Source: Candidatus Omnitrophota bacterium (GTDB taxonomy: Bacteria > Omnitrophota > Gorgyraeia > Zapsychrales > JANLHA01). Taken from it: 64,000 bases of DNA. The notes below the pieces were generated by a model. The model was given only the letters and a program-made list of their open reading frames with translations, was not told the DNA's origin and did not search any database. Location: positions 18,817 to 82,816 of the forward strand of contig JBFMEN010000058.1 of NCBI GenBank assembly GCA_040753435.1, written 5' to 3'. Each line of letters starts with the position of its first letter. Position 1 is the stretch's first letter. Shown here piece after piece: positions 22,153 to 34,109 of the stretch. Made by a program: the position numbers and the translations under genes.

Positions 22153-24273
22153 ATGCAAATCATCAGCCGCTTTAAAAGTTTTTTAACCTCATCGTTATTC
22201 CTTCCGTTCATATTATCATTCGCTGTCTGGATTTTTGCCTTTCGTGGATTTGTATTCGGCTCTCTTGCCTTTGTTGAAGATGCCGTCTCATATCTCAATC
22301 AGACTAAATTTTTGACAGATTCCATGCTCCAGGGCACGTTGCTTCTATGGAGCAGTGAAGCTTTCGGAATGCCCAATGACTTTTTTCTATTGCGTCTGGG
22401 CGCCTTTAATCCGTTGTTCGTCATAATCACGCTGCTGAGATCTGCGGGAATTCCTTTCTTTGTTGTCTATGTCTGGTCCATGGCCGGATATTATTTTCTG
22501 GGGTGCTGCGGGTTTTATTTTCTTTCAAAGCGAATAACTGGACACCGGCTGGCCGCATTGATGGGATTTCTGTTATTATATTTCTCCGCGCTCGGCACGA
22601 GGATCTTTGATTCTTACATTATTCTTGTCTTTGTTCCGTTAATGTGGTTTTTCTTTTTCATCGTGGATTTCTTCACCGCGCCTTCAAGGAAAAGTTTCAT
22701 CGGTAGCGTTTTTACCATGATGCTTTTGTTGAGCACATATATCCCGTTTTACTTCCTGTTTATCTTGCTGGTTTTCCTGGTATTTATGGCAGTGGTTTTT
22801 CCAAAAAAATTTTTAAACAAAACCAGCCAATTAGTTTCATTTATCGCAAGCAACAAGATTCTTTGTTTCTGCGGGCTCATTGCGCTGCTTGTAGCCTTGA
22901 TCCCGGGAGTTTTCTTTTTTCAGTCTTCACACAGAGGGGAGTTTGTTATGCCGTTACGGCATGATTTGCTTTCGTCAAATGACGCGGCGCTTGAAGTTCA
23001 TCCCAGGGTGACATCAACATGGGCCTCGATTGAGGATATTGCTTTTTCAAATTATTTTACCGATTTGCGTCAAATGAAATTCGCCATTATCTATGTGCCG
23101 TTTTTGACCTGGATTTTGTTAAGTCTTGGCCTGTTAACAAAAATGACAAAACGTTTTTTATTTTATTTTCTGTTCGCAGGTTTTTTTCTGGCTCTGGGAA
23201 TTCCGCAAGACCTTCCGTTATATCAGTTTTTGCATGAGCGCATTTTCTTTTTTAAATATTTCCGGAATCTTCATTTTTTTTTATGGTGGGTGATCCTTCC
23301 TGTGATGTTTCTGTTAATTGCAGAACAAACCGGGCAAATTTTAGGAATGCTGAAACACCGACGAAGATTCGATTTAATTGTCCTGTTAGCGCTGCACATA
23401 ATGTGGTTATACGTGATTTTTAAACAACCGGATTATATTTTATCCACCGTCATTTCCATTCTGCTCAGCTGGATTTTTTTCACGTTGATCTGGCTGGGGG
23501 CGGATCAAAAAAAGGTGCTTTGGCTCGGATTAGGCGCTATGGTTGTTTTTTCCGCGCAACCGCTCGAAGTGTTTTTTCATTTAAGTTCTAATTCGAAAAG
23601 CAAAGAGCAGCCGTATTATTTCGAGCGAATCAAAGAAAAGTCATCTTATCTGAATGATGCGCTTGATGCTTCCGGCGCAGTGTCGTTTTATATCGCCATG
23701 AATCAGGTTGTTACTCTACAAAATAATCTTCCGCCGGAAATTTTTTATCGTTATTCATTGCCGGAATTTGTTGTTTACGATCAGTTCAAAATGCTTAAGG
23801 AACCCGCAGACTGGAATGAGATTTCGGATTCTTTTAAAGGGGAGAGAAATATTGTTTTCGTTGAAGACTGGGACGAGAAATTTTTACTTGCCGGGAAGCA
23901 GAAGCGCCGGATTCCCATTGAAGGACCCGGGCAAGGCGTTAATGTTATTTCCGACCGGCCCAATCAGTTAAAGGTTGAAACATTTTTTGACCAGCCCAAG
24001 CTCCTGGTTTTCAATGATACATTCTCGCCCCATTGGAAGGCAGACATTGATGGAGTCTCAACCCGGGTTTATAAAGCGAATCTGGCGTTTAAAGGGGTTT
24101 ACGTTCCTGACGGGAAGCATACTGTCACCTTGCGTTTCGAAAAACATTTATGGATCAATCGGGGCGTCTGGCTGGTTTTTATGTCTGTATTTGCAGCGTT
24201 ATTATTTTTTTCATTAACCGATAAACGGTTTTGTGGCGAATGCGATGAAAGCCTTTTTCCAAAAAATTGTTAG
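22153..24273 (+). CDS. YfhO-like polytopic membrane protein (GT-C-type glycosyltransferase family)
   Basis: About 14 predicted TM helices precede a C-terminal soluble domain ending …FSPHWKADIDGVSTRVYKANLAFKGVYVPDGKHTVTLRFE, which matches the conserved Y.PGWKA.VDG…RAN.AF..V.VP.G.H.V.F.Y tail of YfhO-family proteins. Confidence 0.55.
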   Translation: MQIISRFKSFLTSSLFLPFILSFAVWIFAFRGFVFGSLAFVEDAVSYLNQTKFLTDSMLQGTLLLWSSEAFGMPNDFFLLRLGAFNPLFVIITLLRSAGIPFFVVYVWSMAGYYFLGCCGFYFLSKRITGHRLAALMGFLLLYFSALGTRIFDSYIILVFVPLMWFFFFIVDFFTAPSRKSFIGSVFTMMLLLSTYIPFYFLFILLVFLVFMAVVFPKKFLNKTSQLVSFIASNKILCFCGLIALLVALIPGVFFFQSSHRGEFVMPLRHDLLSSNDAALEVHPRVTSTWASIEDIAFSNYFTDLRQMKFAIIYVPFLTWILLSLGLLTKMTKRFLFYFLFAGFFLALGIPQDLPLYQFLHERIFFFKYFRNLHFFLWWVILPVMFLLIAEQTGQILGMLKHRRRFDLIVLLALHIMWLYVIFKQPDYILSTVISILLSWIFFTLIWLGADQKKVLWLGLGAMVVFSAQPLEVFFHLSSNSKSKEQPYYFERIKEKSSYLNDALDASGAVSFYIAMNQVVTLQNNLPPEIFYRYSLPEFVVYDQFKMLKEPADWNEISDSFKGERNIVFVEDWDEKFLLAGKQKRRIPIEGPGQGVNVISDRPNQLKVETFFDQPKLLVFNDTFSPHWKADIDGVSTRVYKANLAFKGVYVPDGKHTVTLRFEKHLWINRGVWLVFMSVFAALLFFSLTDKRFCGECDESLFPKNC

Positions 24274-29424: not shown

Positions 29425-30099
29425 ATGAATTTAACAGGAAGTTTTACTGATTTATTTATTGTTTTCACCGCCGGGGTTATCGTTTCATTCACTCCGTGCG
29501 TTTATCCTGTTATGCCGTTGACGGCTGCTTTTATCGCCAGGGCCAATACCACCGGAAGCCATATTCGCGCATTTTTTCTTTCCCTGGTCTTTGTTTCAGG
29601 TCTTGCTGTTACTTACAGCATTTTTGGCATCGGCGCGGCCTTGGCGGGAAAGGTTTTCGGCCAATTCCAGAACCAGCCGTGGATGTACGGGATCATTTCG
29701 GCCCTGCTGTTGTTTTTTGCGTTGATCACCCTCGATATTTTGTCGCTGCCTTATTTCGGCCTTTCCATCCAGAGCAGGATTAAACCAGGGAATATATGGG
29801 CTGTCCTTTTGTTTGGAGCAACCTCTGGCCTTGTCGTGGGTCCCTGCACAGCGCCGATTCTTGGAACAATCCTGATTTATATCGCGGCAAGAGAAAATTT
29901 TTATTATGGCGCTTTCCTGATGCTTTTGTTTTCGTATGGCGTCGGGTTTTCATTGATCCTTGTCGGAACCTTTAGCGGAGCATTGTCGATTTTGCCAAAA
30001 ACAGGCCCTTGGATGATTCAGGTCAAGCATGTGAGCGGATTTATCATTCTCGCGGCTGCATCCTGGTTCTTTTTAAAAGCAATTGGAATAATTATTTAA
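29425..30099 (+). CDS. CcdA/DsbD-family transmembrane thiol-disulfide electron transporter
   Basis: Six TM helices carry the two conserved cysteines in SFTPCVYPVMPL and VVGPCTAPILG. Confidence 0.7.
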   Translation: MNLTGSFTDLFIVFTAGVIVSFTPCVYPVMPLTAAFIARANTTGSHIRAFFLSLVFVSGLAVTYSIFGIGAALAGKVFGQFQNQPWMYGIISALLLFFALITLDILSLPYFGLSIQSRIKPGNIWAVLLFGATSGLVVGPCTAPILGTILIYIAARENFYYGAFLMLLFSYGVGFSLILVGTFSGALSILPKTGPWMIQVKHVSGFIILAAASWFFLKAIGIII

Positions 30100-30101
30100 C
30101 G

Positions 30102-30174
30102 TTTAGGGTTTGGTTTTTTATGAATCATAAATGCAAAAGAACGGGGTCATTTTTTAAACCATAAGCGCTAAACC
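30102..30174. promoter_or_regulatory. Candidate operator motifs upstream of the EndoQ-like gene
   Basis: GTTTAGGGTTT at 30102-30112 and the near-palindromic TAAGCGCTAAACC at 30162-30174; both motifs recur upstream of the adjacent UvrD-like gene. Confidence 0.4.
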
Positions 30175-30186
30175 ACAAACATTTTT

Positions 30187-31470
30187 ATGATATACTTCGC
30201 GGACCTTCATATACATTCCAGATACTCGAGAGCGACCTCAAAAAGTTTGGATCTTGAGGAGCTGGCTTATTGGGCCCGACTGAAGGGGATCCAGGTGATC
30301 GGGACGGGGGACTGCCTTCATCCGGAATGGATGAAAGAGCTGAAAACCAGACTTGAACCCGCGGAACCAGGTCTTTTCAAATTGAAGTCTGCGTATGAAC
30401 GTGATGTGAAACGAAGGTTGCCGGCTGCTTGCCAGGGTGAGGTTAGATTCTTGCTGTCGACGGAGATATCAAGCATTTATAAAAAAGATAATAAAGTCAG
30501 AAAAGTTCATAATGTTTTGTTTTTTCCATCATTTGAAATAGCTGACAATGTCTTCAAGCGCCTGGATCGGATCGGGAATTTACATTCCGATGGAAGACCC
30601 ATCCTGGGGCTGGACGCCAGGGATTTGCTTGAGATCGTTTTGGAAGCAGACGCTTCAAACGTTCTGGTTCCGGCGCACATCTGGACTCCATGGTTTTCAG
30701 TTCTCGGCTCAAAGAGCGGATTTGATTCCATTGAAGAATGTTTTGAGGACCTGACTACCTGTATTTTTGCCCTGGAGACAGGGCTGTCTTCAGACCCATT
30801 GATGAACTGGCGGTTGAGCAAGCTTGATGCCTTCGTCATGATGTCGAATTCCGACGCTCATTCGGCGCCCAATCTTGGACGCGAATCAACGATGTTTGAT
30901 ACAGACCTTTCTTATCCGGCCATGATGGACGCGATGAGAAACAATTCAAAGGGACTTGCGGGAACGGTTGAGTTTTTTCCCGAGGAAGGGAAATATCATT
31001 ATGACGGCCATCGCGCCTGTCACTGCCGGCTCCATCCAAAAGAAACGATTGTTCATAAAGGAGTTTGCCCGGTCTGCGGTCAAGGCGTTACGGTCGGGGT
31101 CATGACCAGGGTTGAAGAACTTGCGGACCATCCCGAGGGCCGGAAATCTCCGCGCGGGCGTCCTTATTACAGTTTGATCCCTTTGCCTGAAATTATAGGC
31201 GCGGCCCGCGGCATGGGTGTCGGCTCTAAATCCGTCCAGGAGACGTATGAGACCGCGCTTCGGGAACTTGGCCCGGAAATGAAGATTTTGATGGAACTTC
31301 CGATTGAAGCTATCGGCGAGGTTACGGGTGGGTTGATTGCCGAAGGCGTCAATCGAGTTCGCCAGGGCAAGGTGAGTATTGCCGCCGGATATGACGGCGA
31401 ATACGGGACCATTAATATTTTTTCTGAACAGGAGAGACAAGGGTCAAAAGGACAGATGACCCTTTTTTAG
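30187..31470 (+). CDS. Endonuclease Q-like PHP-domain nuclease (TIGR00375-type)
   Basis: N-terminal YFADLHIHSRYSRATS (PHP HxH metal site); central Zn finger HRACHCRLHPKETIVHKGVCPVCG; C-terminus …GQMTLF. Confidence 0.65.
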   Translation: MIYFADLHIHSRYSRATSKSLDLEELAYWARLKGIQVIGTGDCLHPEWMKELKTRLEPAEPGLFKLKSAYERDVKRRLPAACQGEVRFLLSTEISSIYKKDNKVRKVHNVLFFPSFEIADNVFKRLDRIGNLHSDGRPILGLDARDLLEIVLEADASNVLVPAHIWTPWFSVLGSKSGFDSIEECFEDLTTCIFALETGLSSDPLMNWRLSKLDAFVMMSNSDAHSAPNLGRESTMFDTDLSYPAMMDAMRNNSKGLAGTVEFFPEEGKYHYDGHRACHCRLHPKETIVHKGVCPVCGQGVTVGVMTRVEELADHPEGRKSPRGRPYYSLIPLPEIIGAARGMGVGSKSVQETYETALRELGPEMKILMELPIEAIGEVTGGLIAEGVNRVRQGKVSIAAGYDGEYGTINIFSEQERQGSKGQMTLF

Positions 31471-31499
31471 TTTTTATTCCCGTTTGTTTAATTAAACTC

Positions 31500-31635
31500 T
31501 AAGCGCTAAACCCGGGATTCTAAACAATTTCAAAATTAGAAATTCAAGATCCGAGCTTTTTATTTTTGATTAAGTTCCGGTCATTGGGTTTTCAGCATTT
31601 GCTATTGTTTAGGGTTTAGAGTCCCTGGTTTAGAG
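31500..31635. promoter_or_regulatory. Candidate operator motif cluster upstream of the UvrD-like gene
   Basis: TAAGCGCTAAACC at 31500-31512, TCTAAAC at ~31520, GTTTAGGGTTTAG at 31607-31619 and GGTTTAGAG at 31627-31635. These are the same GGTTTAG/CTAAACC heptamer and TAAGCGCTAAACC block found upstream of the EndoQ-like gene. Confidence 0.4.
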
Positions 31636-31651
31636 ATTGTGTAATAATTTT

Positions 31652-33163
31652 ATGTTTACAGACCTGAATGAAGATCAGTTGAAGGCTGTTCACAGTCAGG
31701 CGCGAAGTCTGTTGATTGTCGCCGGTCCGGGGACCGGTAAAACCCACACGCTAGTCCGGCGGATCCTGTCCAGGATTCATGCCCTCCCGCCAGCGACGAG
31801 AATTTCGGCGATCACGTTTACAAATAAATCCACGGATGAGATGCGCACGCGCCTGGCCTCGCAAATTTCTGATATGAATAAAATTTTTATCGGGACTTTT
31901 CATCAGTTCTGTTTAATGATCCTGAAAGATTATTTCAACATTTCATTTGCCGTCATTGACAGGGAGGCATGTGAGACCCTGACCGGTTCCATTTGGCCAG
32001 AGTTTCCTATGTCCCGGCGCAAACGAAATCTGGAAGAGATTTCGCGCTGGAAGAACACATCTTTTGATGATCAAATTCCGCCCCTGGTTCATCAATATCA
32101 ACAGGCACTGCGCGCGGGAAAACAGTATGATTTTGATGATCTGCTGTTGGAAACGCTGATCCGTTTGCGAGAAGATCATGACGTGCTTGAACGGGTCAGA
32201 AAAGATTTTTATGATGTGTACATTGATGAGTACCAGGATATCAATTTGCTGCAGCATGAACTGTTGGTCCTGTTGATCGGAGACGATCAATCTATTACTG
32301 CGATCGGTGATCCTGATCAGGCAATTTATGGTTTCCGCGGTTCGGATGTTAAATTTTTTCATTCCTTTACGAAAGACTTCCCCGATGCCGAAGTCCTTTA
32401 TTTGCGCCGCAATTATCGTAACGCATCCGATCTTTTGTCAGCTTCAAGACAGATCATTAAAGTCAGCGGATATCGGGATATCCCCGCCCAGGTCGCATCT
32501 ATTTATCAAAAAGGAAGCCTGGTTATACATTCCGCATTGACGGATAAGGCCGAAGCCGAGTTTATTGTTCATTCGATTGAGAAAATGACCGGCGGAATCA
32601 GCATGTTTTCCCGGGATTCACAAAGAGTCGGGGAGGACGATGAGGGGAAATTTTCTTTCGGCGATATTGCTGTTCTATTTCGCTTGAAAAGCCAGGCGAG
32701 AGAATCGATCAAGGCCCTGGAGAGAAGCGGAATTCCCTTCCATTTTAATGGTCTTATTCGAGAGAATGGGATGGATATCGACGATGATCTTTTTGATCAG
32801 CACTTTGAGGAGGGCGGTTATCAACCGGAAAAGATTTCGTTGATGACTCTGCATGCATCCAAGGGGCTGGAATTTCCTTGTGTGTTTATTTGTGGCTGTG
32901 AAAAGGGCCTGATGCCTTTGAATTTGCTGAAAATGAAATCTGACGATGAGGAGGAGCGGCGGCTTTTTTACGTCGGAATGACGCGGGCGAAAGAACGCTT
33001 GATTTTTACACATGCAAAAAAAAGAATGCTTTATGGAAAGACCTTAAATCCCGAACCTTCCCCATATCTTCAAGATATCGAGGAATCGCTAAAGAATTAT
33101 ACAGCGTCTCAATATTTAAAGAAAAAACAGAAGGCCGATGACGGGCAGATGACTCTTTTTTAA
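31652..33163 (+). CDS. Short UvrD/PcrA-family (SF1) DNA helicase
   Basis: Walker A (AGPGTGKTH), motif II (YIDEYQD), TLHASKGLEF and YVGMTRAKERL are present. At ~500 aa it is much shorter than canonical UvrD (2B domain reduced). C-terminus is …DDGQMTLF. The ATG at 31652 is preferred over the track's TTG at 31637. Confidence 0.75.
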   Translation: MFTDLNEDQLKAVHSQARSLLIVAGPGTGKTHTLVRRILSRIHALPPATRISAITFTNKSTDEMRTRLASQISDMNKIFIGTFHQFCLMILKDYFNISFAVIDREACETLTGSIWPEFPMSRRKRNLEEISRWKNTSFDDQIPPLVHQYQQALRAGKQYDFDDLLLETLIRLREDHDVLERVRKDFYDVYIDEYQDINLLQHELLVLLIGDDQSITAIGDPDQAIYGFRGSDVKFFHSFTKDFPDAEVLYLRRNYRNASDLLSASRQIIKVSGYRDIPAQVASIYQKGSLVIHSALTDKAEAEFIVHSIEKMTGGISMFSRDSQRVGEDDEGKFSFGDIAVLFRLKSQARESIKALERSGIPFHFNGLIRENGMDIDDDLFDQHFEEGGYQPEKISLMTLHASKGLEFPCVFICGCEKGLMPLNLLKMKSDDEEERRLFYVGMTRAKERLIFTHAKKRMLYGKTLNPEPSPYLQDIEESLKNYTASQYLKKKQKADDGQMTLF

Positions 33164-33192
33164 AGCCACAAGTCGCCGGGCCGCATGTTTAT

Positions 33193-33231
33193 GTCACGAG
33201 AATAAAATAATTTTACGTTTGTTCTTGTGAC
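33193..33231. terminator. Putative bidirectional terminator hairpin between convergent UvrD-like and metF genes
   Basis: GTCACGAGAA…(19-nt AT-rich loop)…TTCTTGTGAC forms a 10-bp stem with one G-U pair. Confidence 0.3.
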
Positions 33232-33239
33232 CAGTGACT

Positions 33240-34109
33240 TTACTTGATTTCGTTTAGAATGTCCGCGGCAGGATAATATTTGTTGAGTGTGTAGAAGTGG
33301 ATTCCGGGCGCCCCTCCCGCCAGCAGGTCCTTGCATTGTTCTATGGCAAAAGCCTTGCCAGCTTCAAGGGTTTTCTCAGGGTCATGCTGAATTGGTTCGA
33401 AGATCTCTTTTATACGGGGGGGAATGGTAATATGGTCATGTTTTGAAAATTCCTGCAGCCGTTCGTAATTCGCAATGGGAAGAACCCCTGGAATGATTCT
33501 CGCCGTCACCCCGATATCCGTCAATCTCCGGACATAATTAAAATAAAATTGATTATCCAGAAAAAATTGAGTGATAACAAAGTCACCACCCTGGGCGAGT
33601 TTGTTCTTTAGAAAGAAGGCATCTTTTTCCAGACTTGGAGCCAATGGGTGTCCTTCTGGGAAACCGGCTACTCCAATTCCAAAATGATCGCCAAAGTTAT
33701 GTCTGATAAAGGAGCAAAGCTCGTAACTGAAGCGGAAGTTCTCGGGTCCAGGGGTCCAGCCGGGATATTCTTTGGGCGGATCACCGCGGAGAGCCAGAAT
33801 ATTACGAATTCCTCTTTTTTCGATATCTTCAATGATCGTTTTAATCTGGTTGCGTGTATTAAGCACGCATGTAAGATGGGCAACAGCCGGTATACCAAAC
33901 TGGTCCTGGACATGTTGGGCGATTTCAAATGTTTTATCGCGGTTACCTCCGCCAGCGCCATAAGTACAGGAAATAAAATCTGGTTTCAACTCAGCCATTT
34001 GACCGATTGTCGCCAAAAGATTCTCATAGCCCTTTTCTGTTTTTGGGGGGAAGAATTCGAATGAAAAGGTCCTTGATTTTTTGCTGAATATTGTTGTTAG
34101 TTTTTCCAT
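33240..34109 (-). CDS. metF: 5,10-methylenetetrahydrofolate reductase
   Basis: FSFEFFPPKTEKG…SCTYGAGGG…AVAHLTC…LALRGDPP are canonical MetF motifs. Confidence 0.9.
   Translation of the reverse strand: MEKLTTIFSKKSRTFSFEFFPPKTEKGYENLLATIGQMAELKPDFISCTYGAGGGNRDKTFEIAQHVQDQFGIPAVAHLTCVLNTRNQIKTIIEDIEKRGIRNILALRGDPPKEYPGWTPGPENFRFSYELCSFIRHNFGDHFGIGVAGFPEGHPLAPSLEKDAFFLKNKLAQGGDFVITQFFLDNQFYFNYVRRLTDIGVTARIIPGVLPIANYERLQEFSKHDHITIPPRIKEIFEPIQHDPEKTLEAGKAFAIEQCKDLLAGGAPGIHFYTLNKYYPAADILNEIK

Follow-up and report, generated by a model that had tools for sequence, protein, structure and literature searches.

A 64,000-nt stretch of Candidatus Omnitrophota DNA (the window; 54 predicted proteins) carries two adjacent genes encoding an EndoQ-family endonuclease and a short UvrD/PcrA-type superfamily 1A (SF1A) helicase, and both proteins finish in the hexapeptide GQMTLF directly before the stop codon. 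We consider this pair to be, with fair probability, the separate-gene form of a widespread bacterial repair enzyme that joins EndoQ to a UvrD-like helicase and is putatively tethered to the β sliding clamp, and the repeats found 5′ of both genes to be a lineage-specific element rather than a conserved operator. An initial annotation of this DNA had proposed both a clamp-tethered nuclease-helicase pair and a shared, damage-responsive regulon; the first idea is upheld here at the protein level and the second is not. The features of the pair are as follows.

30187..31470, + strand: gene for a predicted EndoQ-family lesion-specific endonuclease of 427 residues, with a PHP catalytic domain, a Zn-ribbon and a C-terminal helical domain
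31450..31467, + strand: GQMTLF codons of EndoQ, a putative β-clamp-binding motif; stop codon at 31468-31470
31652..33163, + strand: gene for a short UvrD/PcrA-type SF1A helicase of 503 residues, with domains 1A, 1B and 2A, without 2B and without Tudor
32756..32815, + strand: stub at the 2B position (residues 369-388), with a predicted local distance difference test (pLDDT) score below 50 and a gap in the PcrA alignment
33143..33160, + strand: GQMTLF codons of the helicase, a putative β-clamp-binding motif with a basic linker before it; stop codon at 33161-33163

A complete EndoQ and a UvrD-like motor predicted from sequence

The first gene had been called an EndoQ-like PHP nuclease in the initial annotation, and profile and structure comparisons bear out this identity. 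TIGR00375 covers the protein over its full length (profile positions 2-374 of 374; E = 1.7e-51), and the Pyrococcus furiosus EndoQ (PfuEndoQ) structures 5zb8 and 7k30 align to residues 1-414 with an E-value of 3e-56 (for 5zb8, query residues 2-413 to 2-384). The TIGR00375 score of 175.7 bits lies under the curated cut-off of 326.6; judged by its sequence, the protein is a member of a divergent bacterial subfamily, the model having been built on archaeal-type sequences. Its homologues carry PF27218 (MJ0043_C). Ten residues are invariant across 28 of these homologues, namely D6, H8 and H10 (PHP motif I), E93, H108, H164, G199, S201, and D223 and H225 (the DAH motif), and in the alignment E93, H108, H164 and G199/S201 correspond to E76, H84, H139 and G169/S171 of the Pfu enzyme. 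In PfuEndoQ, the catalytic zinc is coordinated by E76, H84, H139, PHP motif I and the DAH motif, and G169/S171 are located in the uracil/hypoxanthine pocket (PMC8307549). The Zn-ribbon cysteines C278, C294 and C297 are likewise invariant; the second cysteine position (C280 here) is variable among homologues, and the nearly invariant H283 may take its place. The AlphaFold2 model has a pLDDT of 84.6 and a predicted template modelling score of 0.86, with low confidence for the last ~14 residues. The gene thus reads as a complete EndoQ with intact metal-binding and uracil/hypoxanthine-pocket residues, predicted to cleave DNA at deoxyuridine (dU), deoxyinosine (dI) and apurinic/apyrimidinic (AP) sites.

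The deposited NCBI protein (P0001; 391 residues, 100% identity over 92% of the EndoQ query) starts at GTG/V37. Since this start drops the invariant PHP motif I (D6, H8, H10), to which every homologue aligns, the correct gene model is the 427-residue open reading frame (ORF) that begins at ATG 30187.

The second protein, previously described as a 2B-reduced UvrD-like helicase, matches PF00580 (2e-55) and PF13361 (2.3e-32) in Pfam, and both the gap against PcrA and the structural comparison support that description. In the alignment with PcrA (1pjr), residues 3-368 match PcrA residues 10-383 and residues 383-481 match 547-646 of 724, leaving PcrA residues ~384-546, the 2B domain of ~160 residues, without a counterpart and a stub of ~20 residues in their place. 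The C-terminal Tudor/RNA polymerase-interaction domain is absent as well, the alignment stopping at PcrA residue 646 of 724. All motor motifs are invariant, among them Walker A (AGPGTGKT), DEYQD, GDPDQAIYGFRG and YVGMTRAK and including motifs III, V and VI. The AlphaFold2 model has a pLDDT of 81, with low confidence at residues 369-388 (<50) and in the tail (489-503), and when it was compared with known structures by Foldseek, UvrD, PcrA and Rep were the best matches (3e-34; TM-score up to 0.72), with GajB at rank 45. From these motifs and alignments, the gene encodes what appears to be a complete SF1A motor that has neither the 2B domain nor the Tudor domain that binds RNA polymerase. Its length of 503 residues is counted from the ATG; a TTG at 31637 is likewise open. 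At 32921-33020 (+), inside the helicase coding sequence and in the area of motifs V-VI, the Rfam model RF03531 ('C. difficile sRNA included into helicase gene') matches with 41.3 bits (E = 1.4e-4), short of its gathering score of 65.2; the match is probably due to conserved coding sequence.

The shared C-terminal peptide

At the very C-terminus of a protein, behind a disordered linker, the pentapeptide QL[SD]LF is the textbook β-clamp consensus and the canonical ligand of the DnaN cleft. The terminal five residues of both proteins, QMTLF, fit this type, and the coordinates 31450-31467 and 33143-33160 confirm the earlier remark that both genes end in GQMTLF. When the motif was scored as Q[LMIVF]x[LMIF]F within the final 10 residues, it was found in just two of the 54 window proteins, EndoQ and the helicase. 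Both tails have low pLDDT in the AlphaFold2 models and are thus predicted to be flexible. Conservation of the tail in orthologues of both partners had been suggested as a check, and among the best 120 homologues of each protein the motif was present in 107 for EndoQ (Omnitrophota, 62-72% identity) and, after a basic linker, in 109 for the helicase (41-59% identity).

The EndoQ tail occupies the same position as the PCNA-interacting peptide (PIP) box of archaeal EndoQ. Through this C-terminal box the archaeal enzyme binds PCNA with a dissociation constant of 55 nM, PCNA stimulates cleavage, and once the box is deleted both effects are lost; the paper that shows this also summarises the β-clamp consensus and remarks, in one sentence, that bacterial EndoQ homologues carry it at their C-terminus (Shiraishi et al. 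2016; PMC4858679). Because of the analogy with the archaeal PIP box and the occurrence of Q[LM]x[LF]F-COOH after a disordered linker, both proteins putatively dock on the dimeric β clamp, and the reading of the pair as a clamp-tethered nuclease and helicase is strongly supported at the level of sequence, with clamp binding itself putative.

A single fused protein in most other phyla

The pair was compared with loci from other phyla by an EndoQ alignment scan of one genome per GTDB species, which matched at least 599 species; the best 80 loci were analyzed. These span about 20 phylum-level lineages, including KSB1, Planctomycetota, Fibrobacterota, Chloroflexota, Desulfobacterota, Myxococcota, Bacillota, Actinomycetota, Gemmatimonadota, Acidobacteriota, Nitrospirota and the Candidate Phyla Radiation, and their EndoQ modules are 53-63% identical. 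At 57 of these 80 loci, EndoQ and the helicase are encoded in one ORF of about 970-1,190 residues, with the layout EndoQ, GQxxLF, a low-complexity linker of 40-130 residues, helicase and QLxLF. Separate genes, each with its own tail, were also found in Planctomycetales, in Peregrinibacteria/Peribacteria and at one Nitrospirota locus, and a few Nitrospirota-type loci have EndoQ without a helicase. An exhaustive profile-free search returned 1,076 family clusters at E<=1e-30, and almost all of the best 150 representatives are 950-1,250 residues long. Named carriers of the fused gene include Desulfonema magnum (1,145 residues), Sorangium, Saccharopolyspora hirsuta and Lachnospiraceae, where the databases call the product merely 'UvrD-helicase domain-containing protein'.

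Both motifs recur in the fused proteins. Among 126 complete fused representatives, 101 finish in the strict motif (QLxLF in 64), and Qxx[LMIF]F, usually with a G before it, stands exactly at the end of the EndoQ module in 75, against a background of 0.4% per 25-residue window. In a set of the Desulfobacterota type, the internal motif was present in 111 of 111 proteins and the terminal motif in 111 of 120. The fused helicase modules usually keep a 2B-sized insert, with 48-209 (median 125) extra residues at the position of the stub.

Aligned to the helicase modules of the fused proteins at the top loci, the window helicase reaches 400-450 bits, compared with 221 against PcrA and 195-218 against UvrD, and it falls far below the equivalog cut-offs of TIGR01073 (PcrA; 314.6 vs 911.2) and of the uvrD model (259.6 vs 1144). 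The difference between 400-450 bits and ~200-220 bits identifies it as an orthologue of the helicase module of the fusion and not as a housekeeping UvrD. As far as the alignments tell, the window pair is the two-gene form of this widespread protein, cut at the linker, with a free clamp-type motif on each half, and the fusion is the strongest genomic evidence that the nuclease and the helicase are a functional couple. An origin of the pair as an assembly artefact or a pseudogenised fusion was considered and rejected, given that each gene has its own start and a canonical free C-terminal motif, that there is no remnant of the linker, and that the layout is kept in more than 100 orthologues.

Several further observations were made on this family. 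Some stand-alone EndoQ proteins of ~430 residues are labelled 'DNA helicase UvrD' or 'DNA helicase II/PcrA' in NCBI/JGI (P0071, P0082), labels that were probably transferred from fused proteins. At two loci (L056:6959-10417, Acetatifactor aquisgranensis; L059:6839-10357, an Acidobacteriota metagenome-assembled genome) the fused gene appears to be interrupted, its ORFs overlapping or shifted: the EndoQ ORF extends into the helicase N-terminus and the rest lies in another frame, a pattern that points to a frameshift, a pseudogene or an error of sequencing. Clustering of the neighbouring genes across the best 80 loci gave no third gene that is conserved universally. The sole recurrent neighbourhood that it found, specific to Desulfobacterota, is dnaN-gyrB: at eight loci (L026, L029, L037, L051, L074, L076, L023 and L031; for example L026:1869-5503) dnaN is on the opposite strand, 1.5-3 kb upstream of the fused gene; gyrB comes after dnaN in six of the eight, and in most of them two small conserved genes precede dnaN.

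Synteny of the pair in Omnitrophota

Retention of the pair in related genomes had also been proposed as a check on the nuclease-helicase idea. In the Omnitrophota loci with enough flanking sequence (the window, L001, L082, L083, L088, L089, L090 and L091), the helicase gene is downstream of EndoQ on the same strand in all eight. The two coding regions abut or overlap in L083, L088 and L090, and three small genes separate them in L089. The flanking genes of L090 and L091 are wholly different from those of the other loci, so the EndoQ-helicase pair travels as a unit. The order MlaE, ABC, MlaD, DUF748, DsbD_TM, EndoQ, helicase and, on the opposite strand, MTHFR is complete in L083 and partial in L081, L082 and L088. 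In the window, the neighbours of the pair are housekeeping genes (Mla transporter, DsbD-like, MTHFR, sugar epimerases, NrdD and PFOR), and the gene directly upstream ends the conserved block.

29425..30099, + strand: gene for a DsbD_TM-like membrane protein, the last of the conserved Mla/DUF748/DsbD block before the pair

Directly 3′ of the pair there is a PIF1-family helicase gene in L091 (8298-9623), and comEA-like (HHH) and comEC genes in L090 (7616-9350). Elsewhere in the window, the ORF at 22153-24273 (+), of 706 residues, has no Pfam match at E<=1e-5.

Repeat elements flanking the nuclease gene

Two related elements occupy the spacers on either side of the nuclease gene; all motif counts given here are for the 64 kb of the window.

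31492..31640, no strand assigned: palindromic intergenic element B, with left arm TTAAACTCTAAGCGCTAAACCCGGGATTCTAAAC and right arm GTTTAGGGTTTAGAGTCCCTGGTTTAGAGATT
30100..30174, no strand assigned: intergenic element A, a shorter and weaker copy with the arms in reverse order (CGTTTAGGGTTTGG ... TTAAACCATAAGCGCTAAACC)

As the initial annotation had noticed, the same words precede both genes. The window contains exactly two copies of the 13-mer TAAGCGCTAAACC, one at 30162-30174, 12 nt ahead of the nuclease ATG, and the other at 31500-31512, 29 nt past the nuclease stop; they are part of a longer repeat of 21 nt, identical at 19 of the 21 positions. Both spacers also have GTTTAGGGTTT in common, at 30101 and 31607. 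The heptamer GGTTTAG/CTAAACC is present in both spacers too, in slightly lower numbers than the two and at least four copies first reported: 5′ of the nuclease there are one exact copy (30168) and CGTTTAG (6/7) at 30100, and 5′ of the helicase three exact copies (31506, 31613 and 31627) and two at the level of the hexamer (31520 and 31607). The tandem of GGTTTAGAG at 31613 and 31627 stands as described. Over the window as a whole the heptamer is not over-represented (6 found, 5.8 expected), and the hexamers GTTTAG/CTAAAC are rarer than base composition predicts (12 found, about 38 expected), a scarcity that makes the seven copies within the 268 bp of the two spacers stand out all the more. The clustering of hexamers around endoQ is far beyond chance.

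These words form the arms of a hairpin. Element B contains the inverted repeats I2 and I13, which are 84-88% complementary (CTAAACCCGGGATTCTAAAC pairs with GTTTAGAGTCCCTGGTTTAG), and the 185-nt EndoQ-helicase spacer folds as RNA with an energy of -47.8 kcal/mol (z = -3.9), none of 200 shuffled sequences being as stable. Element A is tied to element B by the direct repeats D2 (21 nt, 90%) and D16 (11 nt, 100%), and its own fold is weak and non-significant (z = -1.0). An Rfam scan of 29900-33400 found nothing in the intergenic regions, and a scan for sigma-70 promoters and terminators found no sites in either of them, with counts at the level of shuffled sequence.

That the shared words are the operator of a damage-responsive, SOS-like repressor, co-regulating both genes and further members of a regulon, is in our view unlikely. 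The idea has in its favour the exact 13-mer and its 21-nt extension together with GTTTAGGGTTT 5′ of both genes, the concentration of 7 of the window's 12 hexamers in these 268 bp, and the palindromic AGCGCT; against it are the pairing of the words as hairpin arms and their distribution. The core motif word was not found in the 83 orthologous loci L001-L083, save one chance hit, a later k-mer comparison that added L088, L089 and L091 was likewise null, and element B as a whole was not found in orthologous loci. No GC-containing 9-mer is common to the upstream regions of six Omnitrophota loci, which share just AT-rich, TATAAT-like words. In the closest relatives (70-72% amino acid identity) endoQ begins in overlap with the end of the DsbD-like gene before it, which leaves no spacer 5′ of endoQ; L083 has no spacer between the two genes either, as the start of its helicase gene overlaps the stop of EndoQ. 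The search for additional sites that had been recommended as a way to define a regulon returned no more copies of the 21-mer or of the hexamer cluster within the window. No lexA-like gene was found among the ten large ORFs scanned with Pfam, the annotated flanking genes and the pair, with the remaining window ORFs left unscanned. The proposed shared operator and SOS-like regulon are therefore not sustained: the motif is missing from orthologous loci, the spacers are lost in relatives, and the words are hairpin arms.

Unrelated hairpins are found at the same spot in other Omnitrophota, and these also speak against an operator: the EndoQ-helicase spacer folds at -70.2 kcal/mol (z = -6.8) in L091 (6291-6459) and at -72.4 kcal/mol (z = -4.4) in L082 (4684-4881). 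A terminator-like stem of unrelated sequence is present in the same spacer of L001 (8290-8384). An intercistronic hairpin may be a recurrent feature of this spacer, or each genome may have placed its own palindromic repeats there. The repeats of the window are most likely a lineage-specific palindromic intergenic element resembling repetitive extragenic palindromes or miniature inverted-repeat transposable elements (REP/MITE-like), or an intercistronic RNA hairpin, in two copies flanking endoQ.

A metagenome scan with TTAAACYMTAAGCGCTAAACC was discarded as evidence for either a regulon or a repeat family, three of its four matches lying in degenerate CCCTAAA-type arrays and one being unrelated. 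The contigs in which the 21-mer query matched such arrays are L084, L085 and L087. By coincidence the window word CTAAACC/GGTTTAG is the same as the plant-type telomere unit TTTAGGG, and pattern scans are contaminated as a result.

A possible anti-phage role and other possible functions of the tail

A two-gene unit of a nuclease and a UvrD-like helicase of ~500 residues also resembles Gabija, and the pair could be a Gabija- or Nhi-like anti-phage module that destroys uracil-containing or otherwise modified phage DNA, the tail targeting replicating foreign DNA. Nuclease plus SF1 helicase is a common defence layout, the helicase matches PADLOC GajB models (up to 257 bits) and GajB in the PDB (3e-15), and a review citing Shiraishi 2017 says that Bacillus EndoQ 'may participate in antiviral defense' (PMC8307549). 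The GajB models are, however, generic for UvrD-like proteins: the helicase scores higher on PcrA (315 bits), and GajB takes only the structural rank given above. EndoQ has no PADLOC match, and the OLD-family ATPase-TOPRIM partner of the GajA type does not adjoin the helicase. The neighbours are housekeeping genes in conserved synteny with no mobile or defence genes among them, and EndoQ modules that are 53-63% identical across distant phyla are atypical of fast-evolving, patchily distributed defence genes. Membership in Gabija was rejected, the adjoining nuclease being EndoQ and not GajA and the context Mla/DsbD/MTHFR, and the clamp-type motif is a further difference from that system. We therefore judge a defence role improbable and favour host DNA metabolism, as the initial annotation had done, on the absence of GajA, the housekeeping context and the cross-phylum conservation.

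A different function of the tail, as a docking peptide for another partner (single-stranded DNA-binding protein (SSB), RNA polymerase or a protease adaptor) or for mutual binding of EndoQ and the helicase, could appeal to a motif of just five residues and to its degenerate internal copy in the fused proteins, and seems to us very improbable. With its disordered linker and its place at the very C-terminus, Q[LM]x[LF]F matches the textbook QL[SD]LF, and it sits exactly where archaeal EndoQ has the PIP box whose binding to PCNA is proven by experiment. Mutual binding cannot account for both motifs being retained in covalently fused proteins, the SSB- and RNA polymerase-binding peptides of the UvrD family have other signatures, and the Tudor domain that binds RNA polymerase is missing.

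Some observations nevertheless count against the separate-gene repair enzyme that we prefer. Clamp binding is read from five residues; the internal motif of the fused proteins is degenerate, with L or M at position 2 in just 15 of 75, and 40% of the diverse fused representatives have no internal motif. No dnaN was found in the part of the window's proteins that the scans and synteny covered. Neither the TIGR00375 nor the PcrA/UvrD equivalog cut-offs are reached, and substrate specificities may differ from those of the characterised enzymes. With regard to the repeats, both copies of the element flank the same gene, which is also compatible with local regulation, and with a copy number known from 64 kb alone neither a multi-copy REP family nor a regulon can be demonstrated. 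Lastly, the hand-off from nick to unwinding, the polarity of the helicase, and the polymerase and flap steps of the mechanism set out below are drawn from family knowledge and not from evidence at this locus.

Proposed mechanism

UvrD-type helicases load at nicks in nucleotide excision repair and mismatch repair and displace the damaged strand. In the proposed mechanism, the tails of EndoQ and of the helicase would dock in the hydrophobic clefts of dimeric DnaN, and since a dimer offers two clefts a tool-belt arrangement is possible. On DNA that carries a clamp, behind forks or at repair patches, EndoQ would nick immediately 5′ of a dU, dI or AP site and leave a 3′-OH. The helicase would load at this nick, move 3′-5′ along the intact strand and peel off the lesion-bearing strand, a clamp-bound polymerase would extend the 3′-OH, and flap removal and ligation would complete the patch. 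Taken as a whole, this would be a bacterial counterpart, assisted by a helicase, of the EndoQ pathway that PCNA stimulates in archaea. Such a step has a place in earlier thinking, as the pathway drawn in the original EndoQ paper requires 'helicase activity' or 'a helicase' (PMC4357722).

The missing 2B domain has a possible consequence of its own. Deletion of 2B from UvrD1 unmasks helicase activity (PMC13646824), and because the engineered protein gains activity in this way the Omnitrophota helicase may, by analogy, be a constitutively active monomer like the engineered Δ2B variants, a natural Δ2B helicase that, as the comparison suggests, 2B does not regulate.

We also put forward, tentatively and leaning somewhat towards doubt, a bolder version in which EndoQ and its dedicated UvrD-like helicase, fused or split, are a widespread, hitherto unrecognised bacterial repair machine whose two motifs fill both clefts of one β-clamp dimer, carrying out glycosylase-independent nick-and-unwind repair behind forks in many anaerobic and uncultured phyla, with the naturally 2B-less Omnitrophota helicase as a constitutively active, monomeric SF1A motor that only its tethering to the clamp holds in check. 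If this is true, incision at dU, dI and AP sites and strand displacement would be coupled on the same clamp that next passes the 3′-OH to the polymerase.

Comparison with known systems

Archaeal EndoQ with PCNA, from Pyrococcus furiosus and Thermococcus kodakarensis (5zb8, 7k30), is the closest characterised system: the family is the same over its full length, the catalytic, zinc and lesion-pocket residues are conserved, and a clamp-type peptide stands at the extreme C-terminus after the last β-strand (GxYGxI). That peptide is the PIP box QRSITEFL in the archaeal proteins and the bacterial β-clamp type QMTLF here, and whereas no dedicated helicase partner has been described for the archaeal enzymes, an SF1A helicase with its own clamp-type motif is coupled or fused to EndoQ in this family. 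The sole biochemically studied bacterial EndoQ is that of Bacillus pumilus and B. subtilis (YqxK), a β-clamp consensus being noted in bacterial homologues; the closest relatives retrieved here did not include the Bacillus proteins. YqxK of B. subtilis is enriched on abasic-site DNA (PMC10220248).

The fused 'UvrD-helicase domain-containing proteins' have orthologous modules in the same order as the window genes, and their helicase modules are the best matches of the window helicase outside Omnitrophota. They differ in being a single polypeptide with a linker, in the 2B-sized insert that is usual in them, and in an internal motif that is more degenerate than the free one of the window. UvrD, PcrA and Rep share the fold and all motor motifs and are the best structural matches of the window helicase, which differs from them in having a clamp-type tail instead of the 2B and Tudor/RNA polymerase-binding domains. 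RecBCD, an SF1A helicase-nuclease, binds the canonical β-clamp cleft through the RecB motif QVEMEF (PMC13254535) and is a precedent for the use of a clamp-binding motif by such an enzyme; it differs in acting in double-strand-break resection, in its RecB-family nuclease, in an internal motif that is exposed after Chi, and in having no lesion-specific incision.

In the literature open to us, which did not extend to subscription-only work, there was no account of EndoQ fused to a helicase or sharing an operon with one, none of a UvrD-type helicase that ends in a clamp motif, and none of how widely the family is spread among bacteria. Nor did it contain a test of an interaction between a bacterial EndoQ and the clamp. 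To the extent of this search, the clamp motif on bacterial EndoQ was already known (2016), and the helicase partner, the fusion and the dual motifs are new.

Significance

EndoQ has been treated in the literature as essentially archaeal, with members in 'only a few bacterial genera', and the step that follows its incision is an open question there. The family described here, which has matches in at least 599 species, comprises 1,076 clusters at E<=1e-30 and consists for the most part of helicase fusions, is in contrast abundant in bacteria and almost always joined physically or genetically to its own SF1A helicase, each module carrying a putative clamp-binding peptide. Recognition of this family would correct the labels 'UvrD-helicase domain-containing protein' and 'DNA helicase UvrD' on EndoQ proteins, and its Omnitrophota members would supply a natural Δ2B UvrD-type helicase for mechanistic work. 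Cultured carriers of the fused gene (Sorangium, Saccharopolyspora, Desulfonema, Lachnospiraceae) make the pathway directly testable. The coupled helicase is a concrete candidate for the missing step after EndoQ incision, and the putative clamp motifs would extend the PCNA-EndoQ paradigm to the unrelated bacterial clamp.

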